From assembly GCA_964387845.1 (NCBI GenBank), contig CAYLXA010000005.1, forward strand, positions 140,955 through 204,954: 64,000 bases of DNA, read 5' to 3'. Below the pieces are notes generated by a model. The model was not told the origin of the DNA, made no database searches, and worked only from the letters and a program-made list of their open reading frames with translations. The DNA comes from an uncultured bacterium (GTDB lineage Bacteria > Omnitrophota > Omnitrophia > Omnitrophales > Abzuiibacteriaceae). Position 1 is the first letter of the stretch, and each line of letters opens with the position of its first letter. Positions 21,035 to 60,621 of this stretch are shown piece by piece. The position numbers were made by a program, and so were the translations under genes.

Positions 21035-22978
21035 ATGTCCATTACGCAATCAACCACGGCCAAACTCCGAATTATTAGTTTCGAAAGCCGTCTGTCCTCA
21101 ACCATGACAGAGCTGATCCACAAAGCCGGCCATGCGCCTATCGCGGCGCCGGCACTGCAGGAAATCCCGCTCGAGAAAAATCCCGAAGCGTTTCAATTAG
21201 GGGAGCGGCTCCTCAATCACGAAATTGATTTCATGATCTTTCTAACGGGTGTCGGCACAAAAGCGCTCTTTGAAACCTTGAGAACCCGTTACAACATGAA
21301 ACAAATCATTGCGGCCTTGAATCAAACCATCATTGTTGCGCGAGGCCCGAAGCCGGTTCAGGTTTTGCAAGATTACGGAATCATGGTTTCGGTCCTGGTG
21401 CCGGAGCCCAATACCTGGCGCGACATTTTGGAAGTTTTAGACTCAGACGAGCATAGCATTTCTCTGATGAAAAGGACTGTCGCGGTCCAAGAATACGGAG
21501 AGGAAAATCCGCAGCTCATCGCCGGATTGGTGGAGCGCGGCGCGCGCGTAATCCGGGTTCCCGTCTACCGGTGGGCGCTGCCGGATGATACCAAGCCGCT
21601 AAAAAATGCGATTCGGACCATCATCGAACACAACGCGGACGCGGTGCTCTTCACAAACTCGGTGCAGGTCAATCATTTATTTCGGCTGGCCTCGGAAATA
21701 GGCCTTGAAAGGCATTTAAAACAGGCCTTTGCCAAAATGGTGATCGCTTCCGTCGGCCCTCATTGTTCTCAAGCGATTGTTGAGCATGGGCTTTCCGTTG
21801 ATATCCAGCCCGAGACGCCGAACATGGAGTCGCTCGTCTTGGAAGTGTCAAAACGCGCGAAGGCCATTTGGGATGAGAAGCAATTACATGAAAGCAAACT
21901 CATGGATTCCGGCATCCGAATGGAATCAGAAAGAGTCCAAAAAAAGGAATTGGTGGAAAGCGTATTTTTAAAAGCGTGCCGGCTTGAAAAAACATCTCAC
22001 ACACCGGTTTGGCTGATGCGCCAAGCAGGGCGCTACATGAAAGAATACCGGCAGCTGCGTGAAAAAATGCCCTTTCTGGAACTTTGCAAAAACCCATCAC
22101 TGTGTGCAGAGGTTACAATTCATGCCCAGGAAACCATCGGAGCGGACGCTGCTATTATTTTTTCGGATATCCTGCTTTTGGTACAGCCGTTTGGCCTGGG
22201 CCTTGAGTATTCGCGGGAAGACGGGCCCGTGATTGACAATGTTATTCACCGCGGATCGCGCATCGATGAACTTCCCGAGATCGAACCGGCCGATTCGCTC
22301 GGATTTGTATATGAAGCGATCCGAAAAACGCGCGAGAATCTGCAGTCCAACATTCCGCTGATCGGGTTTGCCGGAGCACCGTTTACGCTGGCGTCTTACA
22401 TGATTGAAGGCGGCTCATCAAAAGATTTTAGGCGCACAAAGCTATTCATGTATTCCGATGAAGGCCAGTGGCGCGCACTGATGGAAAAATTGGCACGCGC
22501 CGTATCGAAACATCTCAAGGCGCAAATTGAGGCCGGTGCTCAGGCGGTTCAGCTTTTTGACAGCTGGGTCGGTTGTTTAGGCCCCGGCGATTATAAAAAA
22601 TATGTACAGCCGTACTCCAAACAGGTATTTGATTCGCTAGAAGGGCTCGCGCCGACCATTCACTTTGGAACCAACACCGGAAATTTGTTGGAGCTCATGA
22701 AAGAGGCGGGCGGTGATGTAATCGGCGTCGATTTTCGGATCACGTTGGACCAGGCTTGGCGAAGAGTGGGATATTCAAAAGCAGTGCAAGGAAATTTGGA
22801 TCCGCTGGTGCTGCAGTCATCGATTCCTTATATTAATCAGCGTGCACAGGAAATTATCAAGCAGGCCTCCGGACGCCCAGGGCACATTTTCAATTTGGGC
22901 CACGGTGTTTTGCCGGATACGCCTGTTGAAAATGTGATCGCGTTGGTGGATATGGTCCACGAACTCAGTGGTAAGTGA
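21035..22978 (+). CDS. hemE: bifunctional uroporphyrinogen-III synthase (N-term) / uroporphyrinogen decarboxylase (C-term)
   Basis: C-terminal 350 aa: TPVWLMRQAGRYMKEYRQLREK... is the HemE signature; N-terminal 270 aa HemD-like (two-lobed flavodoxin-like; weaker); single ORF of 647 aa. Confidence 0.7.
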   Translation: MSITQSTTAKLRIISFESRLSSTMTELIHKAGHAPIAAPALQEIPLEKNPEAFQLGERLLNHEIDFMIFLTGVGTKALFETLRTRYNMKQIIAALNQTIIVARGPKPVQVLQDYGIMVSVLVPEPNTWRDILEVLDSDEHSISLMKRTVAVQEYGEENPQLIAGLVERGARVIRVPVYRWALPDDTKPLKNAIRTIIEHNADAVLFTNSVQVNHLFRLASEIGLERHLKQAFAKMVIASVGPHCSQAIVEHGLSVDIQPETPNMESLVLEVSKRAKAIWDEKQLHESKLMDSGIRMESERVQKKELVESVFLKACRLEKTSHTPVWLMRQAGRYMKEYRQLREKMPFLELCKNPSLCAEVTIHAQETIGADAAIIFSDILLLVQPFGLGLEYSREDGPVIDNVIHRGSRIDELPEIEPADSLGFVYEAIRKTRENLQSNIPLIGFAGAPFTLASYMIEGGSSKDFRRTKLFMYSDEGQWRALMEKLARAVSKHLKAQIEAGAQAVQLFDSWVGCLGPGDYKKYVQPYSKQVFDSLEGLAPTIHFGTNTGNLLELMKEAGGDVIGVDFRITLDQAWRRVGYSKAVQGNLDPLVLQSSIPYINQRAQEIIKQASGRPGHIFNLGHGVLPDTPVENVIALVDMVHELSGK

Positions 22979-27941: not shown

Positions 27942-28547
27942 ATGAAAAAGTTATTTTGGGTTCTTTTGCTGGCATTGTGCGCGGGATTTTCAGCCCATTT
28001 GTTTGCGGCTGCGGAAGTCGGCCAGCCGGCTCCGGATTTTTCACTGACGGATTCATCGGGCACAACGCATACGCTGTCGGAACATAAAGGAAAGTTTGTC
28101 GTGCTGGAATGGGTCAATTACGACTGCCCGTTTGTCAAAAAACATTACAGTGTCGGCAATATGCAAAATTTACAGAAAGAATTCACCGGAAAAGGCGCTG
28201 TGTGGTTCTCGATCAATTCTTCTGCGCCCGGCAAGCAGGGCAATTTCTCAGCCGAAGAAATTAATCAAAAAATCGCAGAGAGCGGCGCTGCCCCTTCGGC
28301 TTATTTAATGGATCAAACAGGCGATACGGGAAGAGCTTATGGCGCTAAAACAACGCCGCATATGTTTGTTGTGGATCCGCAAGGTGTTTTGATTTACAAA
28401 GGCGGCATTGATGATAAGCCGTCAACCGATTCGGCGGATATCGCGGGCTCCAAAAATTATGTTTCCGCGGCGCTGAATGAAGCCATGGCAGGGAATGCCG
28501 TGACCAATGCGAGCACCGATTCGTACGGCTGTTCCGTGAAGTATTAA
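27942..28547 (+). CDS. secreted redoxin (AhpC/TSA or TlpA-like thioredoxin fold)
   Basis: Signal peptide; APDFSLTDSSGTTHTLSEHKGKFVVLEWVNYDCPFVKKHY has a single active-site Cys. Confidence 0.6.
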   Translation: MKKLFWVLLLALCAGFSAHLFAAAEVGQPAPDFSLTDSSGTTHTLSEHKGKFVVLEWVNYDCPFVKKHYSVGNMQNLQKEFTGKGAVWFSINSSAPGKQGNFSAEEINQKIAESGAAPSAYLMDQTGDTGRAYGAKTTPHMFVVDPQGVLIYKGGIDDKPSTDSADIAGSKNYVSAALNEAMAGNAVTNASTDSYGCSVKY

Positions 28548-28812
28548 AGCAAAACCATCATTGCGAGCCGCATTGTTTGTTGGCGAAGCAATCTCAGCTC
28601 GATTTATTTCTCTCCGCTTTCTTGCGCGCGATGATTTTTAGCCGATCGGGCTAAACAAAAATCATCGTGCTCAGCCCATTCAGAAAGATTGAGCCATTCA
28701 ATCTTTCCTCATGATGGCGCTCCGAGAAACAATTTGAGCTTCGATGTTTATAAAAGCTTCCTGAAGGGCGAAATGTTTTGTTAATACAAATTTAACATGG
28801 TACTTTTAAAGG

Positions 28813-29667
28813 GTGCTTGAGCAAAAATACAAAAACGTGATTACAGCTTATTTGGATACTAGTGTTTACAATAAAATCTTAAATTCGGACGCAAATGAAA
28901 TCGAACGGTTAATCGAGAGTTGTGTTCGAGAAAAGAAAGTAATTATCAGGGCCTCGCTTTTGAATGCTCAAGAAATATTGTTGGCAGATGCAGAAAGTAA
29001 AAGAAAACTTTTCTCGCTTGCAAGAAAAATAACCCATAATCTTGTTTATGAAGAAACCCGTAATATTTTGAAGTTGGATTTTGATAGTTTTTTAAGAATT
29101 AAGACACAACATCAAAATATATATTCCACAGCTAATTGGTACTCATTTTTAGAGAAAGGAACCGCTGGTAATTTTGATCAAATGTATGGCGATATTAAGA
29201 AAGATAGCTCATATCATCAATACAAACCTGTATTCTTAAGCGAAATCAAAGAAGCTTGTGAGAAGGCAGATAAATTTTCTGATCGAAATTTAAGATTCTC
29301 GAAAGTAAAATTGCTATCACAAAAATCAGATATACAATTTTTGTCTGGTCTTTTACGGTTATTTTACCCAGCAGAATATATTTCGGATTTGGTCAAATTG
29401 ATTGATCTAAGAAAAATGCCACGATTGCGCTACGTGGTAAAATTTTTGTTACATACCATGGAACTGCATCTAACTGGCGGATTAAAACCAAAGTGGGGAG
29501 ATAATACCGATATGCAGCATGTTATATACGCTTCTGATAATAAATATTTTGTTACCGCCGACAAAAATTTTTTATCTCTCTTGCAGGGAATTAGTAACGA
29601 AGATACTAAATTTTTAATGTATGATGATTTCGCCAAAGAAATCAGTAGTCAATCTAAGTGGTTCTAA
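28813..29667 (+). CDS. hypothetical protein in AT-rich island, possible divergent PIN-like fold
   Basis: N-term ITAYLDTSVYNKIL and C-term HVIYASDNKYFVTADKNF resemble first and last PIN strands; GC content is far below the flanks; GTG start. Confidence 0.4.
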   Translation: MLEQKYKNVITAYLDTSVYNKILNSDANEIERLIESCVREKKVIIRASLLNAQEILLADAESKRKLFSLARKITHNLVYEETRNILKLDFDSFLRIKTQHQNIYSTANWYSFLEKGTAGNFDQMYGDIKKDSSYHQYKPVFLSEIKEACEKADKFSDRNLRFSKVKLLSQKSDIQFLSGLLRLFYPAEYISDLVKLIDLRKMPRLRYVVKFLLHTMELHLTGGLKPKWGDNTDMQHVIYASDNKYFVTADKNFLSLLQGISNEDTKFLMYDDFAKEISSQSKWF

Positions 29668-29721
29668 GAATATAAAAATAGGGTAGAAAGCTACAGTCGC
29701 TTTTTTTTGTAGACCGCTATA

Positions 29722-30093
29722 ATGTTAAATAATCTACAGCTCAAACTCATTTTCTCTAAAACCAAAGGCCATTGTCATTTTTGTGGCGACAAACTACGGT
29801 TTGATCGATACGGAAACCGAAGCGCAAAATCCTTAGATGGTATGTGGGAATTGGATCATATAATTCAGAGGGGCAAAGGCGGAAAGGATGAAATTAATAA
29901 TTTTCTTCCGGCTTGCGCACGTTGTAATCAGCTCAGATGGCATCGCAAGGGAAAGCAGCTTCGAGAATTGATTTTCTTAGGTTTAATAGCAAAAGTAGAA
30001 ATTAAAAAACATTCGCCTACAGGTAAACAAATTCTCTTGCTTAGGAAGAAGCGAATAGCTTCCAACCAAAAGCGCAGACGACTTTTTTTATAG
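29722..30093 (+). CDS. HNH endonuclease
   Basis: HCHFCGDKL...WELDHIIQRGKGGKDEINNFLPACARCN: HNH with two CxxC zinc knuckles. Confidence 0.8.
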   Translation: MLNNLQLKLIFSKTKGHCHFCGDKLRFDRYGNRSAKSLDGMWELDHIIQRGKGGKDEINNFLPACARCNQLRWHRKGKQLRELIFLGLIAKVEIKKHSPTGKQILLLRKKRIASNQKRRRLFL

Positions 30094-34701: not shown

Positions 34702-34744
34702 CTCTTTTGTGTTATACTCTTTCGGTTCTTTGAGAAAGGCTTTT

Positions 34745-35172
34745 CTCGGTAGATGATCGCCTGCTGCATTTTGCAGTGGGAGGAAAGTCCGAACTTCACA
34801 GGGCAAGGCGCCCCGTAATACGGGGTGGGGCGGGAGCAAATCCCGCTTTAAGGAAAGTGCCACAGAGATTATACATCCGAAGTGGTAAGTGATAAGTGGT
34901 AGGTGGTAAATAGTAAATAAAGGAGTTATTGGCTTCTCATCAACTTAGCACTTACAACTTATCACTTACTACTGGATAAAGGTGAAACGGTGGCGTAAGA
35001 GACCACCGTGTATCGGCGTAAGCTGGTATGCAAGGTAAACCCCGCCTGAAGAAAGATGAAGATCGCGCAAGTTGACTTGTTCAGCTCAGGGCGGCCCGTT
35101 CTGCGCGCGTCTAACAAGATCGAATGACCCGAGGTTGCAAAATCCGGGCTAGACAGATGATCATCGCTTCTT
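34745..35172 (+). ncRNA. rnpB: RNase P RNA (bacterial type A)
   Basis: GGAGGAAAGTCCGAAC...ACAGGGCA (P4 region), AGGAAAGTGCCACAGAG (P10/P11), GGTGAAACGGTGGCGTAAGAGACCACC (P13/P14), CAAGGTAAACCCCGCCTGAAG, ...GGGCTAGACAGATGATCATCGC 3' end; ends approximate. Confidence 0.8.
34881..34973. repeat. GTAAGT-class hairpin embedded in RNase P RNA (forms the P12 helix)
   Basis: agtggtaagtgataagtggtaggtggtaaatagtaaataaagg ... caacttagcacttacaacttatcacttactact, lying between the AGGAAAGTGCCACAGAG and GGTGAAACGGTGGCG conserved blocks. Confidence 0.7.
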
Positions 35173-35173
35173 C

Positions 35174-35258
35174 AGTTGTAAGTGATAAGTGATAAGTGGT
35201 AAGTTGTAAGTTTTAAGAATTCATAAACTTATCACTTAAAACTTACCACTTACAACTG
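35174..35258. repeat. GTAAGT-class hairpin element with CCAGTTGTAAGT...ACTTACAACTGG termini
   Basis: cagttgtaagtgataagtgataagtggtaagttgtaag-ttttaagaattcataa-acttatcacttaaaacttaccacttacaactgg, directly 3' of rnpB. Confidence 0.75.
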
Positions 35259-35305
35259 GGGAAGAAACAGAATTCGGCTTATGCCGAGAAAAGCCTCTCT
35301 TTTTT

Positions 35306-47348: not shown

Positions 47349-50300
47349 GTGAGGCCCTACTCTTTTTTTCTGCGCGCCATCTCCGCGCTCCTGATTTTTA
47401 CTTTCTCTTTCACTGAAACCATCGCACGCGCTGACGCAGCTCAGACATCGTCGCAGTTAGCGGCGATGCTAGAGCAGTCATCAAACCGGATGGGTTTGAT
47501 GGCCGAAACTATTTCTAGTTTTACGCGCAATAGTTATCTCGCCATCGAAAAATTCGCCAACTCCGTCGATGTCCGTTCCGAACTGCGTTCTCGAGGACTT
47601 GAATTATCTGGCGGTCATAAACCCATACCCCAAAGTGATACTAAAGAGGTAAATAATAATGACAAATCAGAGGCAGGGCATGAGCAGTCAGAAAAAGAAA
47701 TTCAGAGTTACGCTAAAAAATTAAAGGAATCAAAAGGTGATTTAAAGATTATTCGAGAGGCGATTGTTAATTTTCACCGCTTGGGCTATAGCGAAGTGAA
47801 AGTCGCAGAAATGATTAACCAAGTCAATCAAAATCAACCTTATGCACAAATTCAATATTGGTCGGATGAAGTCACCCAATCTACGTTAATCAAACGCTTT
47901 TCACAGCATCGAAAATTAATTAAATCTCTCCTTTGGCTTTTACTCCCGGTTGTTTGTTATTTTTTACCTTATCCAGGCGCGACTGCTTTACTTCTCTTGA
48001 TTTATCACGACGCAATGCACCGGTATCAAGCCGGCTTTTACTTTCTGACTTATTTTCTGGGTGATTTTTGGAATAATCGAATGGAAGATATTCAAAATTT
48101 TCTGGTCAAGAAGTATCACGAGCCCGATTTTAATTTTGAGGGTGATTTGTGGCTAAATCCGGTAGACCGGGCGCATGACCAATTATTCGAAGCCAAAAGG
48201 CAATTTTGGAAAAGCGTCCTTGAAAGCATGAGCGGAGTTTATATGGTCAGCTCGATCCTGGTTTTCCCATGGCTATTTTCAGCCCTGAGAATGCTGATAT
48301 CAGCCCCCATGGTTCTTGTTCAAACAGGCGTTTTTTCGTTCTTGGGCGCAATATCGATTGGTTTCTTCGGGCTAGTTCCTTTACGCGGGCCCCACTTTCA
48401 AGTTACGGCGGCAGATTTGGGCTTGGAGCATGCCGTCGATGTTGAAAGAACGTCCGTGACAGGTCTCCGGTGGCCTCAATTTTCAAACAAGCAGAATGCA
48501 ATGATTGAAGCTGCCCGTTTTTACTGGAATAGAAATCCGATGGTCCTGTATGTTGAGAAGAACCGCGAATCGAAGTTTGAATGGAATAGGCAAATCCGCC
48601 GCGACACTGCAAGCCGTCTTTTAGCCCGCCATTTTTTAACGGTCGTTTTGTTTGTTACGACTGCCTTAAGCACCATTTTATTGATTGCTATCAGCATTAT
48701 TCTTGGCTCAGGCGTTATAGGCGCGGTTGAGTTTGTTATTCAAAAATTCGGCCAGAGTTTTATAACGAATGTGTTGCTGATCGTGGGTTCTTGCTGCTTT
48801 TTTCCGCTTGTGGCCGTTATCATCATCAGCGCGATAGTTGTCGGAAGCGAACAAAGCATTGCTGGAGCATGGCAAAAAGCCCGGGCAGATATTAAAAGCT
48901 TGAAGAAAAACGTTTTCCTTAATCCGAATCAGTCTGATGAAAAATTTTGGAAAAATTTAATTAAGCAACTAAAGCGGATCAGTAAAGAAGAGGCGCCCTT
49001 TAGCGATATTAGTTTCCCTGAGTCGATTGAGCGGTTGATCCGTGATTTGTCATCTCTCAAAGAGGATCATTCGGAATTAATTCCGCTGCATGAGGCTCTC
49101 GCTACAGGCAAGGAGGGCACCGAATATCAAATCAAAGGGCAGGCGGCTCTGACTTCTGATCGACATTCGGATGATCCTTCAACGAAAGTCAGGGCAGAAC
49201 TCAGGACGACGAATGAACGGCTGATTTGGAAGGCAATTGCTCAATTTGGAATTCCGGAGTTTTATCAAGAGCAAGCCTATTTGTTTCTAAGCGGCTTGCT
49301 GGAAATTAATCAGAGTCAGTGGGGAACACCTTTCGAAGACGCAATCAGTAGACTTTCTCAAGTACAAGTTGAACAAATTAAATCTTCCATTTCTTTCGAA
49401 CCCATTGTCATGTCCACTACTTCTTTGGTTAGACGCACGGTTCGTTTTTCGGTTTATATGGCCGGTGTTATCGTTTTGGCGTATGCCGCCGGGGCTGCTT
49501 TGGCACGAGACATCAATTTGTTTAAACTTTTCAGCCAGATCGGAAAACAAAAACTTCCGGGGCCGGAGCAGATCGACATAGGGTTCGCGGCCATATTTTT
49601 ATTCACAATGTTTATCGGATTACCGTTTGTGATTACGCGTTTTCAAAGGTGGCTTGACGCCAAAATAAAACCTTATCCCATTTCTTACGATCTCAGGCGC
49701 ACAATCTTAAATGAATTGTTCGTCAAGCAAGGCCTCATGTCAACGGATGATGCGGAAGAATTGACCCGAAGAAAATATCGATCGGAATTGCGGACGGAGT
49801 GGGCAGATCAAATTAAGAGTTTGCTTTTAAAAGATTTTCCGTTCTTGGAACTCGATTTTTCTGAAAATGGTTACCTGTTTCGCGCTATCAGAAGTGGTTT
49901 GCGTGATGGATTGTCAAGAGGATCGTTCTCTTACCTAAATGACGGAGGCGTTGCGGCCGGTTGGCAAGAAAAGCATCTTGTCTATTTTGTTTCCGAAGAT
50001 CCAAATGATGCCCTTGATGTTGCTGAATTTCAAAACGGATTTCCGGATAACGCAGTCGTTATTTTCCCGAGCAAATTATTTCACGATGAAATGAATGCAG
50101 GCCGTGCTGCCATCATGACCACCCATGGGCTTTCCGGGACGTTGACGGGTATCAAATGGCCTCTCATGACGAACCCGGTTACGATTCAAGATTCTGCTTT
50201 TATTATTGTTACTCCTGAAACCAAACAATATTTGGACAATCTGCTGGTCAATGGTCAGGCAAGCGGCGAAGAAGAAAAATTAAGACTCCGGCTTTTGGAA

Positions 50301-53300
50301 TATCAGAAGCAGGGGATTTATCAAAAAATTGTTGCCTTGAATTTTGAACCAAAAGGCATGGCAGCGGATGCGATTCAAGAGAAGTTTAAGGCATTTTTAT
50401 TGAGCAAAAGCATTCAGCCGGCGCAAGCGATTGATTCTGAAATATATCCAAACTTGGCCGAAATTCAAAGTGATGGCGTAAACAAAAGGCGCTCCGAGCT
50501 GCGGTCCAGGGAATTTGTTAAATTTAGCGAGCTTGGATCTGCAATCGCTGACTATATTGATCTTTTTCGCAAGAGAAACGGAAGGTTTAGTCCATCGGTT
50601 TTAAGAGCGGTTGCTGATCTTGATTTCGGAACCGAGCGGCAATTTGTTAATGTAGCGTCTGTGCCGTTGAGAAACGGTTTCGTACCCGATCCTCAAGCTT
50701 TTGGCAGGGCCGTTGTTGAGGGGATCGTAAGAGAACTTCCGTTTGAAGTACGGCCCATCGAAAAGTTCAGTTTTGCGTATAAAAAGCATGCGTTCAGAAT
50801 TCGCATGGAAACGGGGAATCAGCAGACGCAGAATAAAGAAGCACATTCGGAGTTGAGGGCAAGGAAAGTTAGAAATGATACGAGCGAGACCAAGTTACAC
50901 CCTAGAGCCGATCGTTTCCATTCATTACGTTCTCTCAAGCGATTTTTCTTAGGCCTACTGATAATTGGCTTAGCTGCGAGCATGTTTATTTGGACACACG
51001 ATCATGACCGATTATCTCTGGATCCCTCATTCATAAAGGTGGCCGTTCATTCTGGCATTCTGGCAATTGTTTCAACTTATATTTTTTGGTGGATGAAGCG
51101 GTATTTGACGACCGGTTTTTTGTTAAGAGAAAAAATCTACAAATTATCAAGGTCATCACCCACATACGAATTCGAATTTGGGAATGTCCGCAATAAGCTT
51201 CTCATTTTAGAAACGCCCGACGGAGGCAAGCATCAACTCTATCTTGATGCGAACCGAAATATTCGCATCATGTCTTTTCGTGAGTCCGGTCAGGGGCTCG
51301 TTAAATTTCTTCTGCCGTACGCGCTAAGCATCAGGCCTGACAAACAACTTTTGATCTATAAAAATAATATCGCATTGCAGGTAATCGGCCCGCAGAAAAT
51401 AAGAATTAAACTGCTCAGCAGATCATCAACGGTTCCGATTATTCGCGAAAGCCGCTTAAACAAAATACAGAGAATTATGATCATGCATCCGATTATCATC
51501 GGAGTGGCTCTCGGTTATGTGATGATGTTGCATAGATTCATGTATTTATTTGCTCATGCGTTTGCTTCGCAAATAATCGGCGGTCACGTCAATTGCATCC
51601 AGTGTATCGAGGAGTTTGAATTTGTTGTAAACACATGGACCGACTATCTCCTGTATGGGATTCCGATTGGCTATCCAGTTGCCAGCGTAATACTAAAGCT
51701 TATTTTTTTCGGTTATAAGAAATATATGCGAGCAAGCAGGGCATTCATTGCCCCCACGCAAGAATTGCCGGACAAACCGGTGCTGTTTGACGAAACATTC
51801 GCAAAAAATTCGGGGCAGCAGTTTGTGTTGAGCGTTCGTCCATTTAAAGAAAGGCAGGTTGGACGTGTGATCCGAAAATTAAAAACCATACGCGAATCCG
51901 GTTTGCAAGTAAGCGATCAGACGATTCAAAATTTATACCGGCTTGTCCGGACAGTCCAGTCCGACCCGTTTGAGGGGCCGGACATTGAATTTGAATTAAT
52001 GCATTGGCTAGAAACCAGCGCAGACTTAAAAGCAATTGCAGCCATCGTCACCGGCTGGTTTCAAATTCGCGGTGACCATACGACCAAGATCAATAGAATT
52101 TTAGAACAGCGATTTAAGTTGAACAAAAAACAAATTGAAAAGCTGAAATATTTGTCTGAATCCTACAGTATCCCGCTAGAGGAAACCGCTATTGATCCGC
52201 CAAGTTCCATGGAACCTATTCCGTACACAGATCAATTAAAAGACCGAACCATTTACCAAATATTCGGGCAAGAGTTTATGGATGAGGCCCTTGAGCGGAT
52301 TGACTCTATCGATGCCAATAAGTTAAAAGATTGGGTGCAAACAGTTTTTAATAAAAACTTCTCGTCAGATTCCAAAGTGCCCATACGCTCTATTTTTCTG
52401 TATGGAAGTTATATTTACGGATCCATCGACGAACCGCGGGATCTTGATTTGATTGCCGTTGTGGAAGGCGATTCGCTTGAGAAGCCCATTCCGGATGAGC
52501 GGACAATACCTAAGAATGTTTTTCGGTCGATGCGCGGGCGTTCGGTCAATTCTGCAAATATTTATTTTTTGACACGTAAACAATTGCAAACAAGCAAGCG
52601 CGCGATTCACGCAGCCAGCGTGGGTATTTTGCTTAAGGCAAAAAATTTATATGACGAACCCCTGAATAGTATTAGAAATTCTGATCAGAAGCAGCTGTTT
52701 TATGCCGCCAGCGAATTAAGTGATGCGTTTGATTTCATCAAGAAAGCTGGCAAAGTAAACAAAATGATCGATTCTGCGAGAATTTTCAACTGGAAAGGAT
52801 TCAGGCGATTGATGGAAGTCGTTCTTTATATTAATGCAATTGACCTGTCTTTATCAATTCCCATTTCTGAAATCGTGACGATGAACAACCGCATGGAAGA
52901 TTACATCGTAAATAAGACAAAAGGCCGCAAAATAACCGAAGGGTTAAAGCGCCTTTACAGGATGGTCCGCACAGCGGTTTTATTAACCCGCGTTTCGCTC
53001 GTTTGGCGGCAAATGGAGGAATGGGGCGGCGGTGAGCATGCGAAGCAAGCGCAGCGTTCGGAATTGCGCAGAAAAATTGAGACAGGAACAGACAAACTTC
53101 TGGCAGAAGTGGACCGCGGCGTGGCGACCGTGATTTTCAATGATCTGCCGAATCGCAATGCCATGAACGGGGAAATGTTCGAAGCGGTCCCGCGTGTTTT
53201 GTTTAAATTAGACAACGATCCCGATGTGAAGCTTTTGGTTTTACGCGGCGCAGAAGACCCCAAAACCCATGAACATCATTTGGCCGGCGGCAACATTGAA

Positions 53301-56300
53301 GAACGTTACCAAATTATGGACCGGGGCGATCACAAGGAATTAGAAAAGCAAATTCTTGAGAAATACGAAATGCTTGCCGCGATTCACTATTTTTCGAAAC
53401 CAAAAATTGCATTGATCGACGGATTTGCAGTAGGCGGCGGGCTTGCAGCTGCGTTCGGCAGTCATTATGTTTTGGCGACGGAGAAGGCAAAATTCGGAAC
53501 ACCCGAAACCAAAACCGTGGGTTCCTATATGGATGGCGCCAACGCGGCATTCATGGCAGACCGGTTTGGATTAGATTATGTAGCGAATGAATTATTTATC
53601 ACAGGTCGGCATGAGGAAGCCAGTGCCCTCATTGATCAATTCGATCATCAGGTTCCGCAGTTAGGCGACATGTATGCGGCTTATTATGGTTATACCGGTT
53701 CGCCCATTCCTTTGGACGAAGCAATATATTACGGGCTCGTCCATTCAACCATACAAGATGCTAAAGCTACAGAAGAAACGCTCAAAGAGTTGGTGAGCTC
53801 TCAACCAAATCTTTCTCCCGGCGAACTCTTAAACAAAGTTAATGACACATTTCCGCGTTCTCAATTGACGGAAACAGAACGCCAAGCCGTCAAAAAGCGC
53901 CGTGATTTGATGGCGAAATACTTTCAAGTGGAAGAAGCGCGTTTCAGTGGCGTGATTAATTTTATGATCGACCGGCTTTCGAACGAAACCTTGAGGAGCA
54001 AAATGGATCCGGACGAGCTTCAGTTCGTGATCGATACACTTACCAAAATCTCAAAAAATTCGCCATTTGGTGTTCTTGCGACCTCGCATATGATTCGCGA
54101 TCACGCGTTTCTCCATGGCCATTTCATACCGGTCAGTCTCAGCCAAATTTACGAACAAGCGTTTGCCCGTACTTTAGAAAGAATGAAAACGTCCGAATTG
54201 GTGAATGGAAAGTTTCCGTTCGTGCGAATGGGTATGTTGTTGCGATCCACGCACGACTCGGTCTTGCTGCGAGGCGTTTTTATTCGCGAAATCGACACCA
54301 CGCTCAAAGTATTCGGAATTGATGAGGAATTTAGAAATTCGCTTGCCCGGGCTGATGTGTTAGAAGGGCTCCGTTCGTTTTTGGAACGCCGAAAACCTGA
54401 CTGGCCTTCAAAGCAGCATGATGGTGATTTATCAAAATTATGGGGCCGGATCGAAGAAACTTTGAAAAAAGTCGAGGGCCATCGTTCCGAACTTAGGCGT
54501 GAAGCAATTATTGATGACGCTCTTGGCGGCGCTTTTGGCGGTAGAGAAGGTATTGGTAAACTAATCCAGCGATGGCAAATAGAGAAAGCGTTATTAGTAT
54601 TTCCATTTTATTTGGCCTCCTTGGCCCGCTCTTGGTTAGGAAATAAAGCAATTGCAGTTACAATGAGCAGCCCCATCGTCGCAACCAAGCCTATTTTCCA
54701 GGTGAACGAAAAATCACTAAATAACCGAGTTGCCAATCCTGCTGTTCCGATATATTGGGCAAACGTCATGCTGGATCTTGCCATGAATTCTGTTTTTTCC
54801 AGGCTTGCTTTCTTCATTACAGTAACATACTCCTCTCCTCATGTAAATCTTGGCTTTTTGAGCCGGCAGCACCCTATCATAAATATTATATTAAGTCAAT
54901 ATTTATTTTATTTATATAAAATATTTGAAAGGAGCCAGCAGGACCAAAAAAAGGCCGAATACGAAGCCGCCGGACAAGTCAACCGTTCCGGACTGCGTGT
55001 GCCCGATTGGCTGCTTTATTTTGGTTTTGGGATTTTGGCCGTACTGGTTGTGGGAATCGCTTCTTTATTTTATTACACCATCCGGCATCCGGATGGTGAC
55101 TCAAACGAATCCAGCTCCCCGGAAACATCGGGCTCTGCCCAGGATCAAAATGATCATTTGGGCCCACCGAGGTCTGAGTTAAGAAAGTTTGATGAATCAA
55201 ACAATGCGCCAAGGTCGCGCATCCGGTGGATTTTGAATTCGATTTGGAATGCGCAAGGCGGAAATTTAGACCGTGAAGTATGGCAGCCCAGCCTGGCGCA
55301 TGCCCGCCGTTTGATCAAACGTTTCCGCCGCGTTCCCGGCATGGGCGAGATCATTTTAGAACTGGGCAAAAATTTCAGGAACCACAAAGCTTTTGATGCA
55401 GTCCTCGCCGAATTATTTGCGGCCGAGTATTTGGAGAAACACGTGCCGGGTTCTAAAGTGATTGGCTTAAGGATGAAAGCCCGGCATGGTGAAATCGATA
55501 TTGTGCTGCGCATCGGCCCAGTTACTTCCCAAGGAAAGCCAAAGGCCGGCGCCGTCAAGCTTGCGCCGGGCATTTACCTGGCCGAAGTCAAATACGGCTA
55601 TGGCAATGATCCTCAATTGGTCCAGTGGAAACAGGCGAAACTGAAAACTCAGTTGAAAAGTTATTCGAGCGTCGCTTCGATCCTTACGCAGGCAGGCCTT
55701 GACGTTCAGGGCCTAATCCTGGTGAGCGCGGAAAGCCCGGCTTATGTTGCGAGCAATCTCCGCCGCCGTGCGTATTGGCGCGCTTCCAATGTTTCAAAGG
55801 GTTTCAGTCTTAAAAATCTTTTGATCGCCTTTGACCCTTTGAGTTATCCGGACAAGCGGCAAATTGTTCCTCCTCAAAATATTGACGTCAGGCGCTGGGC
55901 ATCGGTCACTTCAACACCTGCTGCTGTTTTTAAAAAGCCGATTCCCGAATCCGCAAATCTTGCTTTGAGCCGGCCGTTGAGGCCAAGAAAAAAGACAGCG
56001 CCTGATGCCGGCGATCCAAACCGCTCGGCGCGATTACCCAGAAATTTTCTGGAAACCGTTGCGCAATTAAAAGAAGCTTTGAACGATCATGGATTGAAAA
56101 AAGAGGCAATCGAAGCCGTGTTGTCTTCACTTGCCAGCCAGGCACATGGTTTTAAAATCGAAGGCTTAGCGCTGAAAGAAAATGACGGCCTTCATTATGT
56201 ACGCGGCCTCAGAGAGGAAATTCGAAGCGGTAATCCGTTCTGGATGGTCCGGCTTCACCGTGCAAACAGAGAAAAATTTGAATCCACACTTATCGCGCGC

Positions 56301-57515
56301 TGGAAAATTCCGGACGAAGCGGTGCAGGATTGGAAAGCCGCCAACCGTTCGGAGCTTAGAACCGATTTGAGAATTGTGCGCTTGCTTGATGAGAGAAACG
56401 ACAAGCTGGTGCCGGCGGCGATCTTATACATGGATTTATTTTTAACTTTCAGGGAACATGGCGCCGAACTTCAGAATTTAACGAGCCATGATTTGTTTGG
56501 AATTACGCCCCATCGGCATCCCGAAGAGGGAATGGCTTATAAAATTATGTTTACGTTACCCAATCAACTTCCGAAGGCCGTCCTTGAAATCGTATCGGAT
56601 GACAAAGGAGAAAAATATAACGCGCAAGACTCCGATTATCCCGTCTTCTTTAAATTTGATTCCAACATGAACTTGATTGCGGTCTATATTACGCTAGATT
56701 CGGAAAAGCCCGAGTATCTTGAGCTCGAAATCCTGCAGCGCGCCGAAAAGGGGACCTTGAAGCCGTACTTTATTAATGAAGAAATCGGTATCCAATACCG
56801 TTCCGGCAATTTGATTCTTCTTCCTCAACCCAAAAGCTTCCGGCTTTCCGCACCGAACCTGGTTTTGCGCGCAAGTCGAACAACCGAGATAAGGTCAGAA
56901 CTGCGATTGGTGCGGCAAGCCGCAAGCTCCAAGCCGCAGGCTCAAGAGTTCGAAATGCTTGATATGCAGGATTCAAAAGCACCGGAAGTCAAGAGTGAAC
57001 TGCGGAAAATTGCGGAGCAAATGAATTTGATCGTGCCGAAGCCGACGGCCGAAATGGACGCCGCGTTTCAAAAATTTGCCGGAATTGAATCTTCGGATCA
57101 AGCCGCACAAACGCAGATTCTTGGAATCTTGCCGAATTTGGGACGTTCGGAGCTTCGCAGCGCCATTATCCAAAGCCAAAGCCGGCAGCGCAAAATCATT
57201 GTCTTTGTGGGTACAAAAAGCGAAAAGCAAATGGTCGAAGACTTTGTTTCCAGTCAAAAGATTCCGGCCGGACGGGTTGTGGTTACGCAAGTTGTTGATC
57301 CGAACATCATCTTCGGAGATCAAAAGCGGGCGGAGCTGCGTTTAGTCGGGTTCGCCGGTGATGAGCCGTATGCATTTCAGGTAACGCGGCTCTTGCGTGG
57401 TTATGATGTTAAAACGCGGATCGGCACCGAGCAAATGTTCGCGAGTATTTTCCAGATTACAGATACTCTGCGTTCCGAACTTCGTCAGCGCATGGCGGCT
57501 TTGATTGCAGCGTAA
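47349..57515 (+). CDS. giant (3388 aa) secreted/membrane modular protein with 14 recurrent RSELR-like pentapeptides; includes nucleotidyltransferase-like, crotonase-like and PD-(D/E)xK nuclease-like modules
   Basis: Uninterrupted 10167-nt frame; GTG start with N-terminal signal-peptide-like MRPYSFFLRAISALLIFTFSFTETIARA; at least 5 TM-rich blocks; LYGSYIYGSIDEPRDLDLIAVV (NTase GS...DxD); VATVIFNDLPNRNAMNGEMFEAV...IDGFAVGGGLAAAFGSHYVLATEKAKFGTPETK (crotonase fold); GEIDIVLRIG...IYLAEVKYG (D...ExK); codon usage like neighbours. Confidence 0.85.
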   Translation: MRPYSFFLRAISALLIFTFSFTETIARADAAQTSSQLAAMLEQSSNRMGLMAETISSFTRNSYLAIEKFANSVDVRSELRSRGLELSGGHKPIPQSDTKEVNNNDKSEAGHEQSEKEIQSYAKKLKESKGDLKIIREAIVNFHRLGYSEVKVAEMINQVNQNQPYAQIQYWSDEVTQSTLIKRFSQHRKLIKSLLWLLLPVVCYFLPYPGATALLLLIYHDAMHRYQAGFYFLTYFLGDFWNNRMEDIQNFLVKKYHEPDFNFEGDLWLNPVDRAHDQLFEAKRQFWKSVLESMSGVYMVSSILVFPWLFSALRMLISAPMVLVQTGVFSFLGAISIGFFGLVPLRGPHFQVTAADLGLEHAVDVERTSVTGLRWPQFSNKQNAMIEAARFYWNRNPMVLYVEKNRESKFEWNRQIRRDTASRLLARHFLTVVLFVTTALSTILLIAISIILGSGVIGAVEFVIQKFGQSFITNVLLIVGSCCFFPLVAVIIISAIVVGSEQSIAGAWQKARADIKSLKKNVFLNPNQSDEKFWKNLIKQLKRISKEEAPFSDISFPESIERLIRDLSSLKEDHSELIPLHEALATGKEGTEYQIKGQAALTSDRHSDDPSTKVRAELRTTNERLIWKAIAQFGIPEFYQEQAYLFLSGLLEINQSQWGTPFEDAISRLSQVQVEQIKSSISFEPIVMSTTSLVRRTVRFSVYMAGVIVLAYAAGAALARDINLFKLFSQIGKQKLPGPEQIDIGFAAIFLFTMFIGLPFVITRFQRWLDAKIKPYPISYDLRRTILNELFVKQGLMSTDDAEELTRRKYRSELRTEWADQIKSLLLKDFPFLELDFSENGYLFRAIRSGLRDGLSRGSFSYLNDGGVAAGWQEKHLVYFVSEDPNDALDVAEFQNGFPDNAVVIFPSKLFHDEMNAGRAAIMTTHGLSGTLTGIKWPLMTNPVTIQDSAFIIVTPETKQYLDNLLVNGQASGEEEKLRLRLLEYQKQGIYQKIVALNFEPKGMAADAIQEKFKAFLLSKSIQPAQAIDSEIYPNLAEIQSDGVNKRRSELRSREFVKFSELGSAIADYIDLFRKRNGRFSPSVLRAVADLDFGTERQFVNVASVPLRNGFVPDPQAFGRAVVEGIVRELPFEVRPIEKFSFAYKKHAFRIRMETGNQQTQNKEAHSELRARKVRNDTSETKLHPRADRFHSLRSLKRFFLGLLIIGLAASMFIWTHDHDRLSLDPSFIKVAVHSGILAIVSTYIFWWMKRYLTTGFLLREKIYKLSRSSPTYEFEFGNVRNKLLILETPDGGKHQLYLDANRNIRIMSFRESGQGLVKFLLPYALSIRPDKQLLIYKNNIALQVIGPQKIRIKLLSRSSTVPIIRESRLNKIQRIMIMHPIIIGVALGYVMMLHRFMYLFAHAFASQIIGGHVNCIQCIEEFEFVVNTWTDYLLYGIPIGYPVASVILKLIFFGYKKYMRASRAFIAPTQELPDKPVLFDETFAKNSGQQFVLSVRPFKERQVGRVIRKLKTIRESGLQVSDQTIQNLYRLVRTVQSDPFEGPDIEFELMHWLETSADLKAIAAIVTGWFQIRGDHTTKINRILEQRFKLNKKQIEKLKYLSESYSIPLEETAIDPPSSMEPIPYTDQLKDRTIYQIFGQEFMDEALERIDSIDANKLKDWVQTVFNKNFSSDSKVPIRSIFLYGSYIYGSIDEPRDLDLIAVVEGDSLEKPIPDERTIPKNVFRSMRGRSVNSANIYFLTRKQLQTSKRAIHAASVGILLKAKNLYDEPLNSIRNSDQKQLFYAASELSDAFDFIKKAGKVNKMIDSARIFNWKGFRRLMEVVLYINAIDLSLSIPISEIVTMNNRMEDYIVNKTKGRKITEGLKRLYRMVRTAVLLTRVSLVWRQMEEWGGGEHAKQAQRSELRRKIETGTDKLLAEVDRGVATVIFNDLPNRNAMNGEMFEAVPRVLFKLDNDPDVKLLVLRGAEDPKTHEHHLAGGNIEERYQIMDRGDHKELEKQILEKYEMLAAIHYFSKPKIALIDGFAVGGGLAAAFGSHYVLATEKAKFGTPETKTVGSYMDGANAAFMADRFGLDYVANELFITGRHEEASALIDQFDHQVPQLGDMYAAYYGYTGSPIPLDEAIYYGLVHSTIQDAKATEETLKELVSSQPNLSPGELLNKVNDTFPRSQLTETERQAVKKRRDLMAKYFQVEEARFSGVINFMIDRLSNETLRSKMDPDELQFVIDTLTKISKNSPFGVLATSHMIRDHAFLHGHFIPVSLSQIYEQAFARTLERMKTSELVNGKFPFVRMGMLLRSTHDSVLLRGVFIREIDTTLKVFGIDEEFRNSLARADVLEGLRSFLERRKPDWPSKQHDGDLSKLWGRIEETLKKVEGHRSELRREAIIDDALGGAFGGREGIGKLIQRWQIEKALLVFPFYLASLARSWLGNKAIAVTMSSPIVATKPIFQVNEKSLNNRVANPAVPIYWANVMLDLAMNSVFSRLAFFITVTYSSPHVNLGFLSRQHPIINIILSQYLFYLYKIFERSQQDQKKAEYEAAGQVNRSGLRVPDWLLYFGFGILAVLVVGIASLFYYTIRHPDGDSNESSSPETSGSAQDQNDHLGPPRSELRKFDESNNAPRSRIRWILNSIWNAQGGNLDREVWQPSLAHARRLIKRFRRVPGMGEIILELGKNFRNHKAFDAVLAELFAAEYLEKHVPGSKVIGLRMKARHGEIDIVLRIGPVTSQGKPKAGAVKLAPGIYLAEVKYGYGNDPQLVQWKQAKLKTQLKSYSSVASILTQAGLDVQGLILVSAESPAYVASNLRRRAYWRASNVSKGFSLKNLLIAFDPLSYPDKRQIVPPQNIDVRRWASVTSTPAAVFKKPIPESANLALSRPLRPRKKTAPDAGDPNRSARLPRNFLETVAQLKEALNDHGLKKEAIEAVLSSLASQAHGFKIEGLALKENDGLHYVRGLREEIRSGNPFWMVRLHRANREKFESTLIARWKIPDEAVQDWKAANRSELRTDLRIVRLLDERNDKLVPAAILYMDLFLTFREHGAELQNLTSHDLFGITPHRHPEEGMAYKIMFTLPNQLPKAVLEIVSDDKGEKYNAQDSDYPVFFKFDSNMNLIAVYITLDSEKPEYLELEILQRAEKGTLKPYFINEEIGIQYRSGNLILLPQPKSFRLSAPNLVLRASRTTEIRSELRLVRQAASSKPQAQEFEMLDMQDSKAPEVKSELRKIAEQMNLIVPKPTAEMDAAFQKFAGIESSDQAAQTQILGILPNLGRSELRSAIIQSQSRQRKIIVFVGTKSEKQMVEDFVSSQKIPAGRVVVTQVVDPNIIFGDQKRAELRLVGFAGDEPYAFQVTRLLRGYDVKTRIGTEQMFASIFQITDTLRSELRQRMAALIAA
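54608..54817 (-). CDS. possible small membrane protein encoded antisense inside the giant gene (speculative)
   Basis: 69 aa MKKASLEK...IGLVATMGLLIVTAIALF (one TM helix); GGAGAGGAG SD about 10 nt upstream; AT-rich promoter-like stretch 54840-54930 upstream on that strand. Confidence 0.2.
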   Translation of the reverse strand: MKKASLEKTEFMARSSMTFAQYIGTAGLATRLFSDFSFTWKIGLVATMGLLIVTAIALFPNQERAKEAK

Positions 57516-59303: not shown

Positions 59304-59873
59304 ATGAAAAAGAGCGGCCAATCCCTGAAAGGGAAAACCATTTTGCTGGGCTTGAGCGGAAGCATCGCGCTTTACCGTTCCTGTGATCTGGTTCGCGAGC
59401 TCAAGTCACAGGGCGCCGATGTGATCTGTATCATGACAAAATCGGCTCAGCAATTTGTGACGCCTCTTACTTTCCAGGCTTTAAGCGGCCGCAAAGTTTA
59501 CACCGACCCTTTTTCCGGTGAAGAAGATTACGCGGTTCTGCACACAACACTCGCCGACAAAGCCGATTTGATTTTGATTTGTCCGGCCTCTGCGAACATT
59601 ATCGCGCGCCTCGCGGCCGGCATGGCGGATGACATGGTGACTTCGGTCGTGCTGGCGAGCAAGGCAAAAATTCTTGTGGCGCCTGCCATGAACGACAACA
59701 TGTTCGCCAACAAAATCACGCAGGATAATATCCAAAAATTGAAGAAAATCGGTTATCAATTTGTCGAACCCACCGAAGGCGACCTGGTCTGCGGCCGCGT
59801 TGGTATGGGCCATATCGCGGAACAGGGTACGATCCTCGAATACGTTCAAAAAGTAGTAAGTGGTAAGTTTTAA
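59304..59873 (+). CDS. coaC: phosphopantothenoylcysteine decarboxylase (flavoprotein; CoaC half of CoaBC)
   Basis: KGKTILLGLSGSIALYRSCDLVRELKSQGADV...PAMNDNM; the last 6 codons (VVSGKF) and the stop lie inside the GTAAGT-type hairpin element. Confidence 0.85.
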   Translation: MKKSGQSLKGKTILLGLSGSIALYRSCDLVRELKSQGADVICIMTKSAQQFVTPLTFQALSGRKVYTDPFSGEEDYAVLHTTLADKADLILICPASANIIARLAAGMADDMVTSVVLASKAKILVAPAMNDNMFANKITQDNIQKLKKIGYQFVEPTEGDLVCGRVGMGHIAEQGTILEYVQKVVSGKF

Positions 59874-59973
59874 GTGGTAAGTCAAAAATAATGAATAATG
59901 CAAATTCCTTCCTTTTCTTAATTCTTTTGCTTATCACTTACCACTTACCACTTACCACTTATCACTTACAACT
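59853..59973. repeat. GTAAGT-class hairpin element separating coaC and coaB
   Basis: gtagtaagtggtaagttttaagtggtaagtc-(58-nt AT-rich loop)-cttatcacttaccacttaccacttaccacttatcacttacaactg; contains the coaC stop. Confidence 0.75.
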
Positions 59974-59979
59974 GTACTC

Positions 59980-60621
59980 ATGAAACCCCACCTTCTCGTC
60001 ACGGCCGGCCCGACGCGCGAAATGCTGGATCCCGTTCGCTTTTTGTCGAACGTATCAACCGGCGTGATGGGCTATGAAATTGCAAAAGCCGCAAAAAGAA
60101 AAGGTTTCCGCGTGACATTGATCAGCGGGCCCGTCAGTTTAAAAGCACCACATGGTGTCCGGCTCGTTTCCGTGATTTCTGCTCAGGATATGGAAAGGGA
60201 AGTGAAAAAATATTTCCGATCTGCGCAAGCGCTCATCATGACTGCCGCCGTTTGCGATTATACGCCGGCAAAACACCAGAAGCACAAAATCAAGCGGATT
60301 CATACACATCGGATGGTGTTCAAGCAGACGAAAGACATTCTGCAAGCCGTTTCTAAAATGAAAAGGAGGCAGTATGTTGTCGGCTTCTGCCTCGAAACCG
60401 AGGATTTGCGTAAGAACGCAATCCGCAAACTCCGGTCTAAAAAACTGGATTTGATTGTTGCGAATTCCTATACACGGTCGCAGAACCCGTTTGGCAGAAA
60501 TAAAACCTCTGTTCTTTTAATTGATAAAGATTTAAGCGAGAAGAGAGTTTCCAATATCAGCAAACCGCGCTTTGCGGCGAGGCTCGTTGCTTGTGTCCGG
60601 AATCAGCTTAAAAAGAGTTGA
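59980..60621 (+). CDS. coaB: phosphopantothenate-cysteine ligase (CoaB half of CoaBC)
   Basis: LLVTAGPTREMLDPVRFLSNVSTGVMGYEIAKAAKRKG...: ATP-grasp-like CoaB; start is 7 nt after the end of the hairpin element. Confidence 0.85.
   Translation: MKPHLLVTAGPTREMLDPVRFLSNVSTGVMGYEIAKAAKRKGFRVTLISGPVSLKAPHGVRLVSVISAQDMEREVKKYFRSAQALIMTAAVCDYTPAKHQKHKIKRIHTHRMVFKQTKDILQAVSKMKRRQYVVGFCLETEDLRKNAIRKLRSKKLDLIVANSYTRSQNPFGRNKTSVLLIDKDLSEKRVSNISKPRFAARLVACVRNQLKKS

Follow-up and report, generated by a model that had tools for sequence, protein, structure and literature searches.

A tagged, multi-module giant gene of an uncultured Omnitrophota bacterium has the layout expected of a pre-pro-polyprotein

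Picornaviruses, flaviviruses and the Gag-Pol product provide the viral and retroviral examples of polyproteins. Plastid polyprotein precursors of Euglena and dinoflagellates consist of light-harvesting (LHCP) or RuBisCO small-subunit units that are separated by conserved decapeptide linkers and preceded by one presequence. In cyanobactin-type precursors of ribosomally synthesized and post-translationally modified peptides (RiPPs), such as PatE, protease recognition sequences of five residues flank each cassette. MARTX and large clostridial toxins free their effector domains by means of an internal cysteine protease domain (CPD) that cuts after Leu in inter-domain linkers. Here we describe a giant gene in a 64,000-nucleotide stretch of contig CAYLXA010000005.1, from an uncultured bacterium of the phylum Omnitrophota; this whole stretch is called the window below, and coordinates are window positions on the forward (+) strand unless given as amino acids (aa). 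The predicted product carries 14 copies of the pentapeptide [RKH][SA]ELR, which we call the tag, and may be a cellular counterpart of these precursors. Related proteins and loci are numbered P0002 to P0009 and L002 to L090 where they need to be told apart.

Like viral and retroviral polyproteins, the giant protein is one long product whose units are joined by a short, lineage-specific motif, and small spacer peptides are possible. Unlike them, its gene is cellular and chromosomal and lies in a housekeeping operon, and no embedded protease was found; the protein also has a leader that appears to be of the Sec type, a conserved tail and membrane modules, its relatives contain metabolic enzymes, and we infer its cleavage. 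MARTX and clostridial toxins are likewise giant bacterial proteins with many modules, and a small-x-Leu core, recognized post hoc, may be common to the tags of the different lineages (SEL|R, ARL|A, AGL|E). However, neither Pfam nor NCBIfam detects RTX repeats, a CPD (Peptidase_C80) or a type I secretion signal in the giant protein, and its cargo and context are not toxin-like. The Euglena and dinoflagellate precursors share with it a single N-terminal targeting sequence, a train of proteins and a conserved short linker, but they are eukaryotic and repeat the same protein, whereas the giant protein is bacterial, has heterogeneous modules and ends in a conserved tail. PatE also has repeated, lineage-specific motifs of five residues that flank its cassettes, but those cassettes are peptides of 6 to 8 residues rather than folded enzymes of 100 to 2000 residues, and no PatA/PatG-like protease was seen.

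The giant open reading frame (ORF; 47349-57515) begins with GTG, downstream of a ribosome-binding-site-like AAAGGA, and encodes 3388 aa: a leader, then 15 segments delimited by the tags, then the C-terminal tail. Its frame of 10,167 nucleotides is unbroken, and the independently assembled Logan data set SRR15237813 yields an identical 3388-aa ORF. In the NCBI annotation, this protein (P0001) has 3338 aa and starts 50 codons downstream of the GTG at 47349 (47349-47498), so that it lacks the conserved signal-like leader. Homology of the leader to those of relatives supports the longer ORF. The signal-peptide-like leader, VRPYSFFLRAISALLIFTFSFTETIARA|D (47349-47432), is followed by a short pro-region up to tag 1, and by inspection has a basic n-region, a hydrophobic core and an A-x-A motif. 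It is homologous to the leaders of three genes at L002 (g2, g3 and g4), and similar leaders are present in P0004 to P0008 and in the gene upstream of P0005 at L087. Presumably, it acts as a Sec-type signal peptide. Hydrophobic segments of the giant protein are confined to modules 2, 3, 6 and 8.

The 14 tags compare with 0.24 expected from composition and with a maximum of 3 in 2000 shuffles, and the rest of the 64 kb contains only about five [SA]ELR in all six frames. Every one of the 14 tags is encoded differently, with six Arg codons, five Leu codons and Ser as both TCN and AGT. Selection therefore acts on the repeat as protein sequence, and repeated DNA does not account for it. The same codon diversity rules out a recoded stop or a reassigned codon as the origin of the tag. 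RSELR is the form of tags 1 (47574-47588), 3 (49779-49793), 4 (50490-50504), 6 (53055-53069, at the boundary of modules 6 and 7), 7 (54483-54497), 8 (55170-55184), 9 (56346-56360), 10 (56892-56906, at the start of the tail), 12 (57144-57158) and 14 (57471-57485). Tags 2 (49191-49205) and 13 (57327-57341) read RAELR, tag 5 (50844-50858) reads HSELR and tag 11 (56991-57005) reads KSELR. Tag 10 is kept as RSELR, RTELR or KSELR in g1 to g3 of L002, and tag 14, which is 8 residues short of the C-terminus, is conserved in P0007 and at L090.

Compared with random positions, the flanks of the window tags are more hydrophilic (p about 0.02) and more polar (p about 0.008). Tag 6 falls in a tail with a predicted confidence (pLDDT) below 50 in the AlphaFold2 model of the neighbouring unit of module 6, and the segment that holds it is probably flexible. 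Two chemical roles for the Ser of the tag, as the residue on which autoproteolysis depends or as a target for nucleotidylation by module 6, are ruled out, because Ala replaces this Ser in some tags and the tags of other lineages have no nucleophile. Beyond tag 10 lies the C-terminal tail (56907-57512), about 200 aa that are homologous across the family and end in ..LIAA. The window tail holds four additional tags, at positions where relatives have ordinary, partly hydrophobic residues.

A whole-protein search retrieved only the window protein itself and P0002, a protein of 3,200 aa that is encoded within the row of four giant genes at L002. (The L002 sequence, L002:1-29603, is from contig Ga0268299_1000036 of JGI 3300028648, where the four genes are consecutive.) Their products are fusions of acetyl/propionyl-CoA carboxylase; of MeaB, an epimerase-like unit and methylmalonyl-CoA mutase; of a crotonase, short-chain dehydrogenases and TIM; and of a propionyl-CoA-synthase-like unit and PEPCK. 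This set is reminiscent of the 3-hydroxypropionate bicycle. RSELR-type tags are present in all four giant genes, and three of the four have the common leader. Overall, the cargo of the relatives includes ACC/PCC, MCM, PEPCK, TIM, PPDK, RidA and methyltransferase modules.

The L002 tags bracket these enzymes: an ECH_2 domain at 124-459 lies in a tag-bounded segment of 105-484, TIM (2735-2970) lies in 2310-2994, and PEPCK (2208-2790) lies in 2187-2800. No internal tags occur over about 1,800 to 2,000 aa in the propionyl-CoA-synthase-like unit and in the unit with short-chain dehydrogenase domains. Thus a short conserved motif stands at the boundaries of autonomous units, as in a polyprotein, and the proposal in the first-pass annotation of a modular protein whose tags delimit separate enzyme-like units agrees with the placement of the tags.

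In an unbiased k-mer count, the tag is the commonest 4- or 5-mer in each relative, and it differs by lineage. RSELR or RAELR is used in the window, P0002, P0004, P0007 and L090, GARLA in P0005 and its neighbour, and AGLE[EG] in P0006 and P0008; tags are over-represented relative to shuffles in ten relatives. Leader, tag and tail are common to the L002 proteins, P0004 to P0008, the PPDK fusion beside P0005, and L090. The leaders have small residues at -3/-1, and the first tag is at aa 45-100 in most members. The tail is a loosely conserved alpha/beta region of about 170 to 200 aa that always ends in a small residue followed by Ala. Immediately upstream of P0005 is a 2,093-aa fusion containing PPDK (L087:2051-8332), with a like leader, [GA]ARL tags and a homologous tail that ends in ..QISA. 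P0004 (L085:10001-23167; 4,388 aa) lies in a housekeeping context of folD, panB and hemA/C/D/B.

The same architecture occurs in unrelated metagenomes. A metagenome scan for relatives gave three loci, one of which duplicates P0007, and a search of a set of 5.8 billion proteins with a profile of the tail gave no match. Literature searches on the tag, on bacterial polyproteins and on fused 3-hydroxypropionate enzymes found no description, and the family is rare and apparently undescribed.

Module 7 (aa 1908-2383; 53070-54497) is an enzyme of the crotonase superfamily (ECH_2/ECH_1) that carries about 150 inserted residues. It matches Pfam ECH_2 with 110.2 bits (cut-off 27.2; E 1.9e-31) and ECH_1 with 76.5 bits (cut-off 27; E 2.7e-21), as well as 71 NCBIfam crotonase models, each under its specific cut-off, and 137 crotonases in the PDB. 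Judging from these matches, its membership of the crotonase superfamily, CoA-ester type, is certain. Crotonase strings span aa 1924-2064 and include LIDGFAVGGGLAAAF (aa 2022-2036) and FGTPETKTVGSYMDGA (aa 2049-2064). In alignments to structures of enoyl-CoA hydratase and CaiD, the active site comprises DGFAVGGGLA and PE(2053)TKTVGSYMD(2062) (53412-53540), and DGFAVGGGLAAAF plus FGTPETK align to GFALGGGCELAM plus FGQPEIK of solved hydratases. The first-pass annotation held that the second catalytic Glu is retained in PETK and that the first is replaced by Ala. These alignments bear this out: the oxyanion-hole sequence DGFAVGGG is present and Glu2053 is kept, but Ala2033 occupies the first hydratase Glu position, so that module 7 has only one of the two Glu residues of enoyl-CoA hydratases. 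A C-terminal helix, EGLRSFLERRKPDW, follows the insertion.

Module 7 and the tag-bounded crotonase of P0002 align with each other (pairwise E 6e-26), and Glu2053 and Asp2062 align with MPESKIGLFPDVG. This Glu/Asp pattern of both proteins we take to be the catalytic pair of 3-hydroxyisobutyryl-CoA hydrolases (HIBCH). The resemblance to the HIBCH/ECH_2 branch includes ECH_2 as the best Pfam model, Ala in place of the first hydratase Glu, and the PE...G-x3-D arrangement. On the other hand, module 7 is far under the HIBCH cut-off (91 bits for NCBIfam PRK05617, versus 274), carries the insertion and has a C-terminal helix of the ECH_1 type. Module 7 probably acts on an acyl-CoA, and the alignment of its Glu and Asp suggests that it may work like HIBCH. 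Full-length NCBIfam crotonase models align their position 4 to residue 4 of module 7, meaning that the tag sits where the N-terminus of a free-standing enzyme would be. The window and P0002 crotonases share a start of the form ..ELR-x-IETGT..VDRGVAT.

Module 6 (aa 1171-1907; 50859-53069) consists of two transmembrane (TM) hairpins (about aa 1195-1246 and 1375-1455) that flank a beta-rich insert, and a soluble unit that resembles nucleotidyltransferases (NTases). The soluble unit (aa 1495-1907; 51831-53069) is conserved and is predicted to begin with a helical domain, continue with an NTase fold and end in a four-helix bundle. The string IFLYGSYIYGSIDEPRDLDLIAVVEGD (aa 1682-1708; 52392-52472) contains the GS-x10-DxD pattern, which the family alignment supports as an NTase signature of the form YGS-x10-DLD (G1686, S1687, D1698, D1700). 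G1686, G1691, P1696, D1698 and D1700 are invariant in nine copies (columns G192, G197, P202, D204 and D206 of alignment A1). Both the hG[GS] and [DE]h[DE]h motifs of Pol-beta-type enzymes are therefore represented, by YGS at 1685-1687 and by D1698-L-D1700, but the third carboxylate is not: the corresponding residue, in the strand SANIYFLT, is Asn1737 (52557-52559), whereas it is Asp in 8 of 8 relatives. Asn1737 lies in a predicted strand at 241-248 of the soluble-unit model. On account of this substitution, the window copy may be catalytically impaired.

Sequence matches of the window NTase are below Pfam cut-offs (Polbeta, 15.3 bits against 26.9, with E 0.02-0.06; NTP_transf_2, 13.8 bits against 21), although each of these two models matches 6 of the 9 family copies, with a best E of 4.3e-4. 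A PDB search with the NTase region as a single sequence found no match; the family profile alone matched, aligning to YGSYRLGVYGPGSDID, the YGSY..G....D.D motif of the poly(A) polymerase Pla1 (E 0.03). The AlphaFold2 model of the unit is confident, and its top 22 Foldseek matches are all nucleotidyltransferases. Its neighbours in structure comprise enzymes of the ANT/KNTase type and poly(A) polymerase. The model thus supports, at the level of fold, assignment of the soluble part to nucleotidyltransferases of the KNTase/ANT (MNT-like) type. Module 6 differs from KNTase/ANT(4'), ANT(3'')(9), LinB and MNT-type NTases in its low TM-scores (0.26-0.43) and identities (10-14%), in an additional helical domain, about 180 aa long, at the N-terminus of the unit, in its TM hairpins, in the Asn at the third carboxylate of the window copy and in its scores under the Pfam gathering thresholds. 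The "CD-NTase-like" label in the first-pass annotation does not hold, in that PADLOC gives no match and OAS2 appears only at rank 44 of the Foldseek results, with probability 0.04.

Module 6 was used in an exhaustive HMMER search of 1.84 billion representative sequences, which matched just seven proteins; all are giants (1,100-4,388 aa), and one has three copies. The layout of TM hairpins, beta-rich insert and NTase-like unit is present in three copies in P0004 and in a single copy in P0007. In P0004, an RSELR or RAELR tag is within about 20 aa of the end of each copy. More generally, the NTase-like module ends at the tag of its lineage, which is RSELR or RAELR in the window, P0004 (all three copies) and P0007, and GARLA in P0005; it starts about 20 aa past the tag GARLA in P0005 and AGLE[AE] in P0006 and P0008. 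Pfam and NCBIfam have no model for the leader, the tail or the NTase-like module.

Module 9 (aa 2613-3004; 55185-56360) starts with a candidate relative of YraN/UPF0102; a linker rich in Pro and Arg connects this part to a helical C-terminal region. The candidate nuclease core (55407-55598) comprises the helix AELFAAEYLEK, GEID(2717)IV, about 20 aa, and AE(2746)VK(2748). The residues of the D...(D/E)xK pattern are in order (D2717, E2746-V-K2748), within HGEIDIVLRIG (aa 2713-2723) and IYLAEVKYG (aa 2742-2750). All matches to YraN/UPF0102 are sub-threshold: Pfam UPF0102 at E 0.003 (18.3 bits, cut-off 23.6), NCBIfam YraN at E 0.0013 (19 bits versus a cut-off of 124), and PDB entry 3fov at E 0.49, in an alignment that takes in the helix and the GEIDxV strand. 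A homologue search with module 9 found none, and its AlphaFold2 model, built from a single sequence, has a pLDDT of 35. A YraN-like PD-(D/E)xK domain is a plausible candidate for this module, considering that the order of a helix ..AE.YLE.., GEIDxV and xEVK is as in YraN/UPF0102. Points of difference are the sub-threshold scores in all libraries, about 20 extra residues inserted between the strand with D and the strand with ExK, and a C-terminal extension of 250 aa.

The first-pass annotation had placed NTase, crotonase-fold and PD-(D/E)xK signatures in separate RSELR-bounded blocks of a region that ends at 55200. All of these strings are in one ORF, in modules 6, 7 and 9, but those of the PD-(D/E)xK candidate (55485-55598) are past that end. 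As to the identities themselves, the crotonase is clear and the NTase stands at the level of fold, while the third has only the sub-threshold YraN/UPF0102 match. Catalytic residues are not systematically missing, since the crotonase has GGG, the Glu of PE and Asp, module 9 has D...ExK, and the NTase has GS and DxD. Taken singly, the modules add new and divergent members to known folds: crotonase, Pol-beta-type NTase and perhaps PD-(D/E)xK.

Among the other modules, module 8 (aa 2384-2612; 54498-55184) is a hydrophobic or membrane orphan with an acidic, Ser-rich linker ahead of tag 8, and has no match in Pfam, NCBIfam or PADLOC. Module 4 (aa 816-1052; 49794-50504) is a soluble orphan in which ..YLFRAIR.. 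and ..SFSYL.. loosely recall the R-S-E motifs of ADP-ribosyltransferases, a resemblance for which Pfam, NCBIfam, PADLOC and the PDB give no support. PDB searches also found no relatives of the orphan modules 4, 5 and 10. NCBIfam also gave a weak match to a cysteine protease, Prp (E 0.0047); it coincides with a TM segment, and we discounted it as spurious.

We give an even chance to the reading that the region is part of one real gene for a pre-pro-polyprotein-like "enzyme train" that is cut at its tags by a trans-acting protease. The layout would comprise a Sec-type leader and short pro-segment, autonomous modules, and the conserved C-terminal tail of about 200 aa, with the pentapeptide joining consecutive units. 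The tags would be recognition sites for a lineage-matched, trans-acting endoprotease, which would free the modules as separate membrane and soluble proteins in fixed stoichiometry. The relatives lend strong indirect support to the polyprotein idea, which had been raised in the first-pass annotation; cleavage, the protease, the function of the signal peptide and the cellular compartment are predictions of this reading. Several points weigh against it. No cleavage product has been observed, Pfam, NCBIfam and PDB searches of the modules found no protease domain in the giant protein, and no protease gene turned up near any locus examined. Four of the window tags are inside the tail, and cutting there would shred a conserved domain. 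The Sec-type leader is hard to reconcile with periplasmic export of those chains among the relatives that contain enzymes dependent on ATP, GTP, CoA or B12. Moreover, module 9 matches PD-(D/E)xK models only below threshold, GARLA and AGLE were defined as patterns after inspection of the data, and only about ten sequences of the family are known.

That no protease was found in or near any examined locus, and that extra tags stand at places where cutting would destroy the tail, are what would be expected if the chain is never cut. The tags would then be docking motifs that bind, for instance, a hub or shell, a chaperone, or a component of a transport system, and the protein would be an intact, membrane-anchored multi-enzyme scaffold in which tag valency provides avidity. 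Lineage-specific motifs with exposed, polar flanks are equally expected of docking motifs. Nonetheless, we regard an uncut scaffold, the chief rival reading, as possible but rather doubtful. The tags are precisely at the starts and ends of free-standing enzymes (PEPCK, crotonase, TIM) and are not scattered in linkers, naturally fused multi-domain units are tag-free over about 1,800 to 2,000 aa, and the order of leader, pro-segment and first tag (aa 45-100) is reminiscent of a pre-pro protein. An artefact, such as a chimeric assembly, a gene fusion created by sequencing error or pseudogenization, or the footprint of a repeated DNA element or recoded stop, might be suspected from the differing start of the NCBI gene call (3338 versus 3388 aa). 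The unbroken 10,167-nucleotide frame, the identical ORF in an independent assembly, like architecture in unrelated metagenomes, and 14 of 14 tags that are encoded differently, with six Arg codons, leave this explanation almost no weight.

The first-pass annotation saw a resemblance to polymorphic-toxin or defence-effector architectures; the protein would then be a toxin or anti-phage effector in which NTase signalling and nuclease killing domains share a membrane anchor. An NTase fold and a candidate PD-(D/E)xK nuclease are indeed on one chain, and the Hailong defence NTase HalB is a weak structural neighbour of the NTase unit (E 0.019). However, no module has a PADLOC match better than E 0.005, and Pfam and NCBIfam detect no Rhs, RTX, CPD or other toxin-delivery domain. 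The gene is also in a same-strand housekeeping run (pyrR-pyrB-pyrC-carAB-pyrKDF...yicC-gmk) with no immunity-like neighbour, including after it, its relatives carry enzymes of central metabolism rather than toxins, and the window NTase lacks the third catalytic Asp. We therefore consider such an effector improbable. Even less probable is that the crotonase/ClpP-fold module itself is the processing peptidase of the polyprotein, in the manner of ClpP or SppA. The fold superfamily is common to ClpP and SppA, but mechanistically the crotonase branch has no established link to the Clp branch (PMC1431709). Only ECH_1/ECH_2 and acyl-CoA-enzyme models match module 7, and the Pfam models for ClpP (CLP_protease) and SppA (Peptidase_S49) do not match it at E ≤ 1. 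It has hallmarks of CoA enzymes in the GGG oxyanion hole, PE and a C-terminal EG..F.E+RKP helix, and P0004 to P0009 are tagged yet have no crotonase module. Hence the suggestion that this fold bears on processing finds no footing here.

If the tags are processing sites, the giant gene would be a natural bacterial instance of "fuse-and-cleave", in which many proteins are made from one ORF in stoichiometric amounts and are perhaps targeted together. This principle is known from viruses. It has also been engineered artificially, in nitrogenase polyproteins based on the TEV protease (PMC6130400), and our literature search turned up no published case of it among the chromosomal genes of bacteria. 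Processing at the tags would further predict new orthogonal pairs of protease and site (RSELR, GARLA, AGLE[EG]), which are possible tools. More tentatively, and at a little under an even chance, some uncultured diderm bacteria might make cellular polyproteins, that is, chains of enzymes and membrane proteins that begin with a Sec leader and are cut at a lineage-specific pentapeptide by a co-evolving protease. The tail ending in ..xA would then be a handling or recognition domain, and the system may supply a compartment, extracytoplasmic or internal, in which metabolism is active. This would be a strategy of gene expression and targeting that is not described for bacteria, and it would raise the cell-biological question of why a Sec-type leader is on chains of which some are built of enzymes requiring ATP, GTP, CoA or B12. 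Demonstrated cleavage or a special compartment could make the giant-gene family more novel. If the tags are not cut, the family would still be an unrecognized class of tagged multi-enzyme scaffolds with a membrane-tethered NTase-like module. In annotation, such genes are now called single "hypothetical" giants.

The giant gene is flanked by pyrF and yicC-gmk, within a run of pyrimidine-biosynthesis and other housekeeping genes on the same strand, in the order pyrR-like, pyrB, pyrC, carA, carB, pyrK, pyrD, pyrF, giant gene, yicC, gmk, coaC and coaB. LptF/G, DsbD, dnaE, dnaG and rpoD identify the chromosome as that of a diderm bacterium. PyrF matched GTDB genomes at no more than 52% identity, in many phyla, and nine housekeeping proteins compared with these loci pointed to no consistent taxon. 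In a scan for promoters and terminators, promoter-like sites were about as frequent as in shuffles, and terminator-like sites were about twice as frequent (27 versus 14.7, standard deviation 3.8).

Elsewhere in the window, a 572-aa ORF (14709-16427) combines an MbnB/TglH/ChrH-type RiPP-modifying enzyme domain with DUF2063, and a YceI-like gene (13740-14333) adjoins it. Uroporphyrinogen-III synthase (HemD) and uroporphyrinogen decarboxylase (HemE) are fused in a single ORF of 647 aa (21035-22978). A low-GC patch (28000-30000; 0.394 versus about 0.48) contains an orphan ORF of 284 aa (28813-29667) with no Pfam match. A class A RNase P RNA match (34741-35296) covers 556 nucleotides for a model of 367 positions, and this RNA must therefore carry unusually large insertions. 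CoaC (flavoprotein) and CoaB (DFP) are encoded on two separate ORFs (59304-60621); many bacteria have these domains fused as CoaBC.

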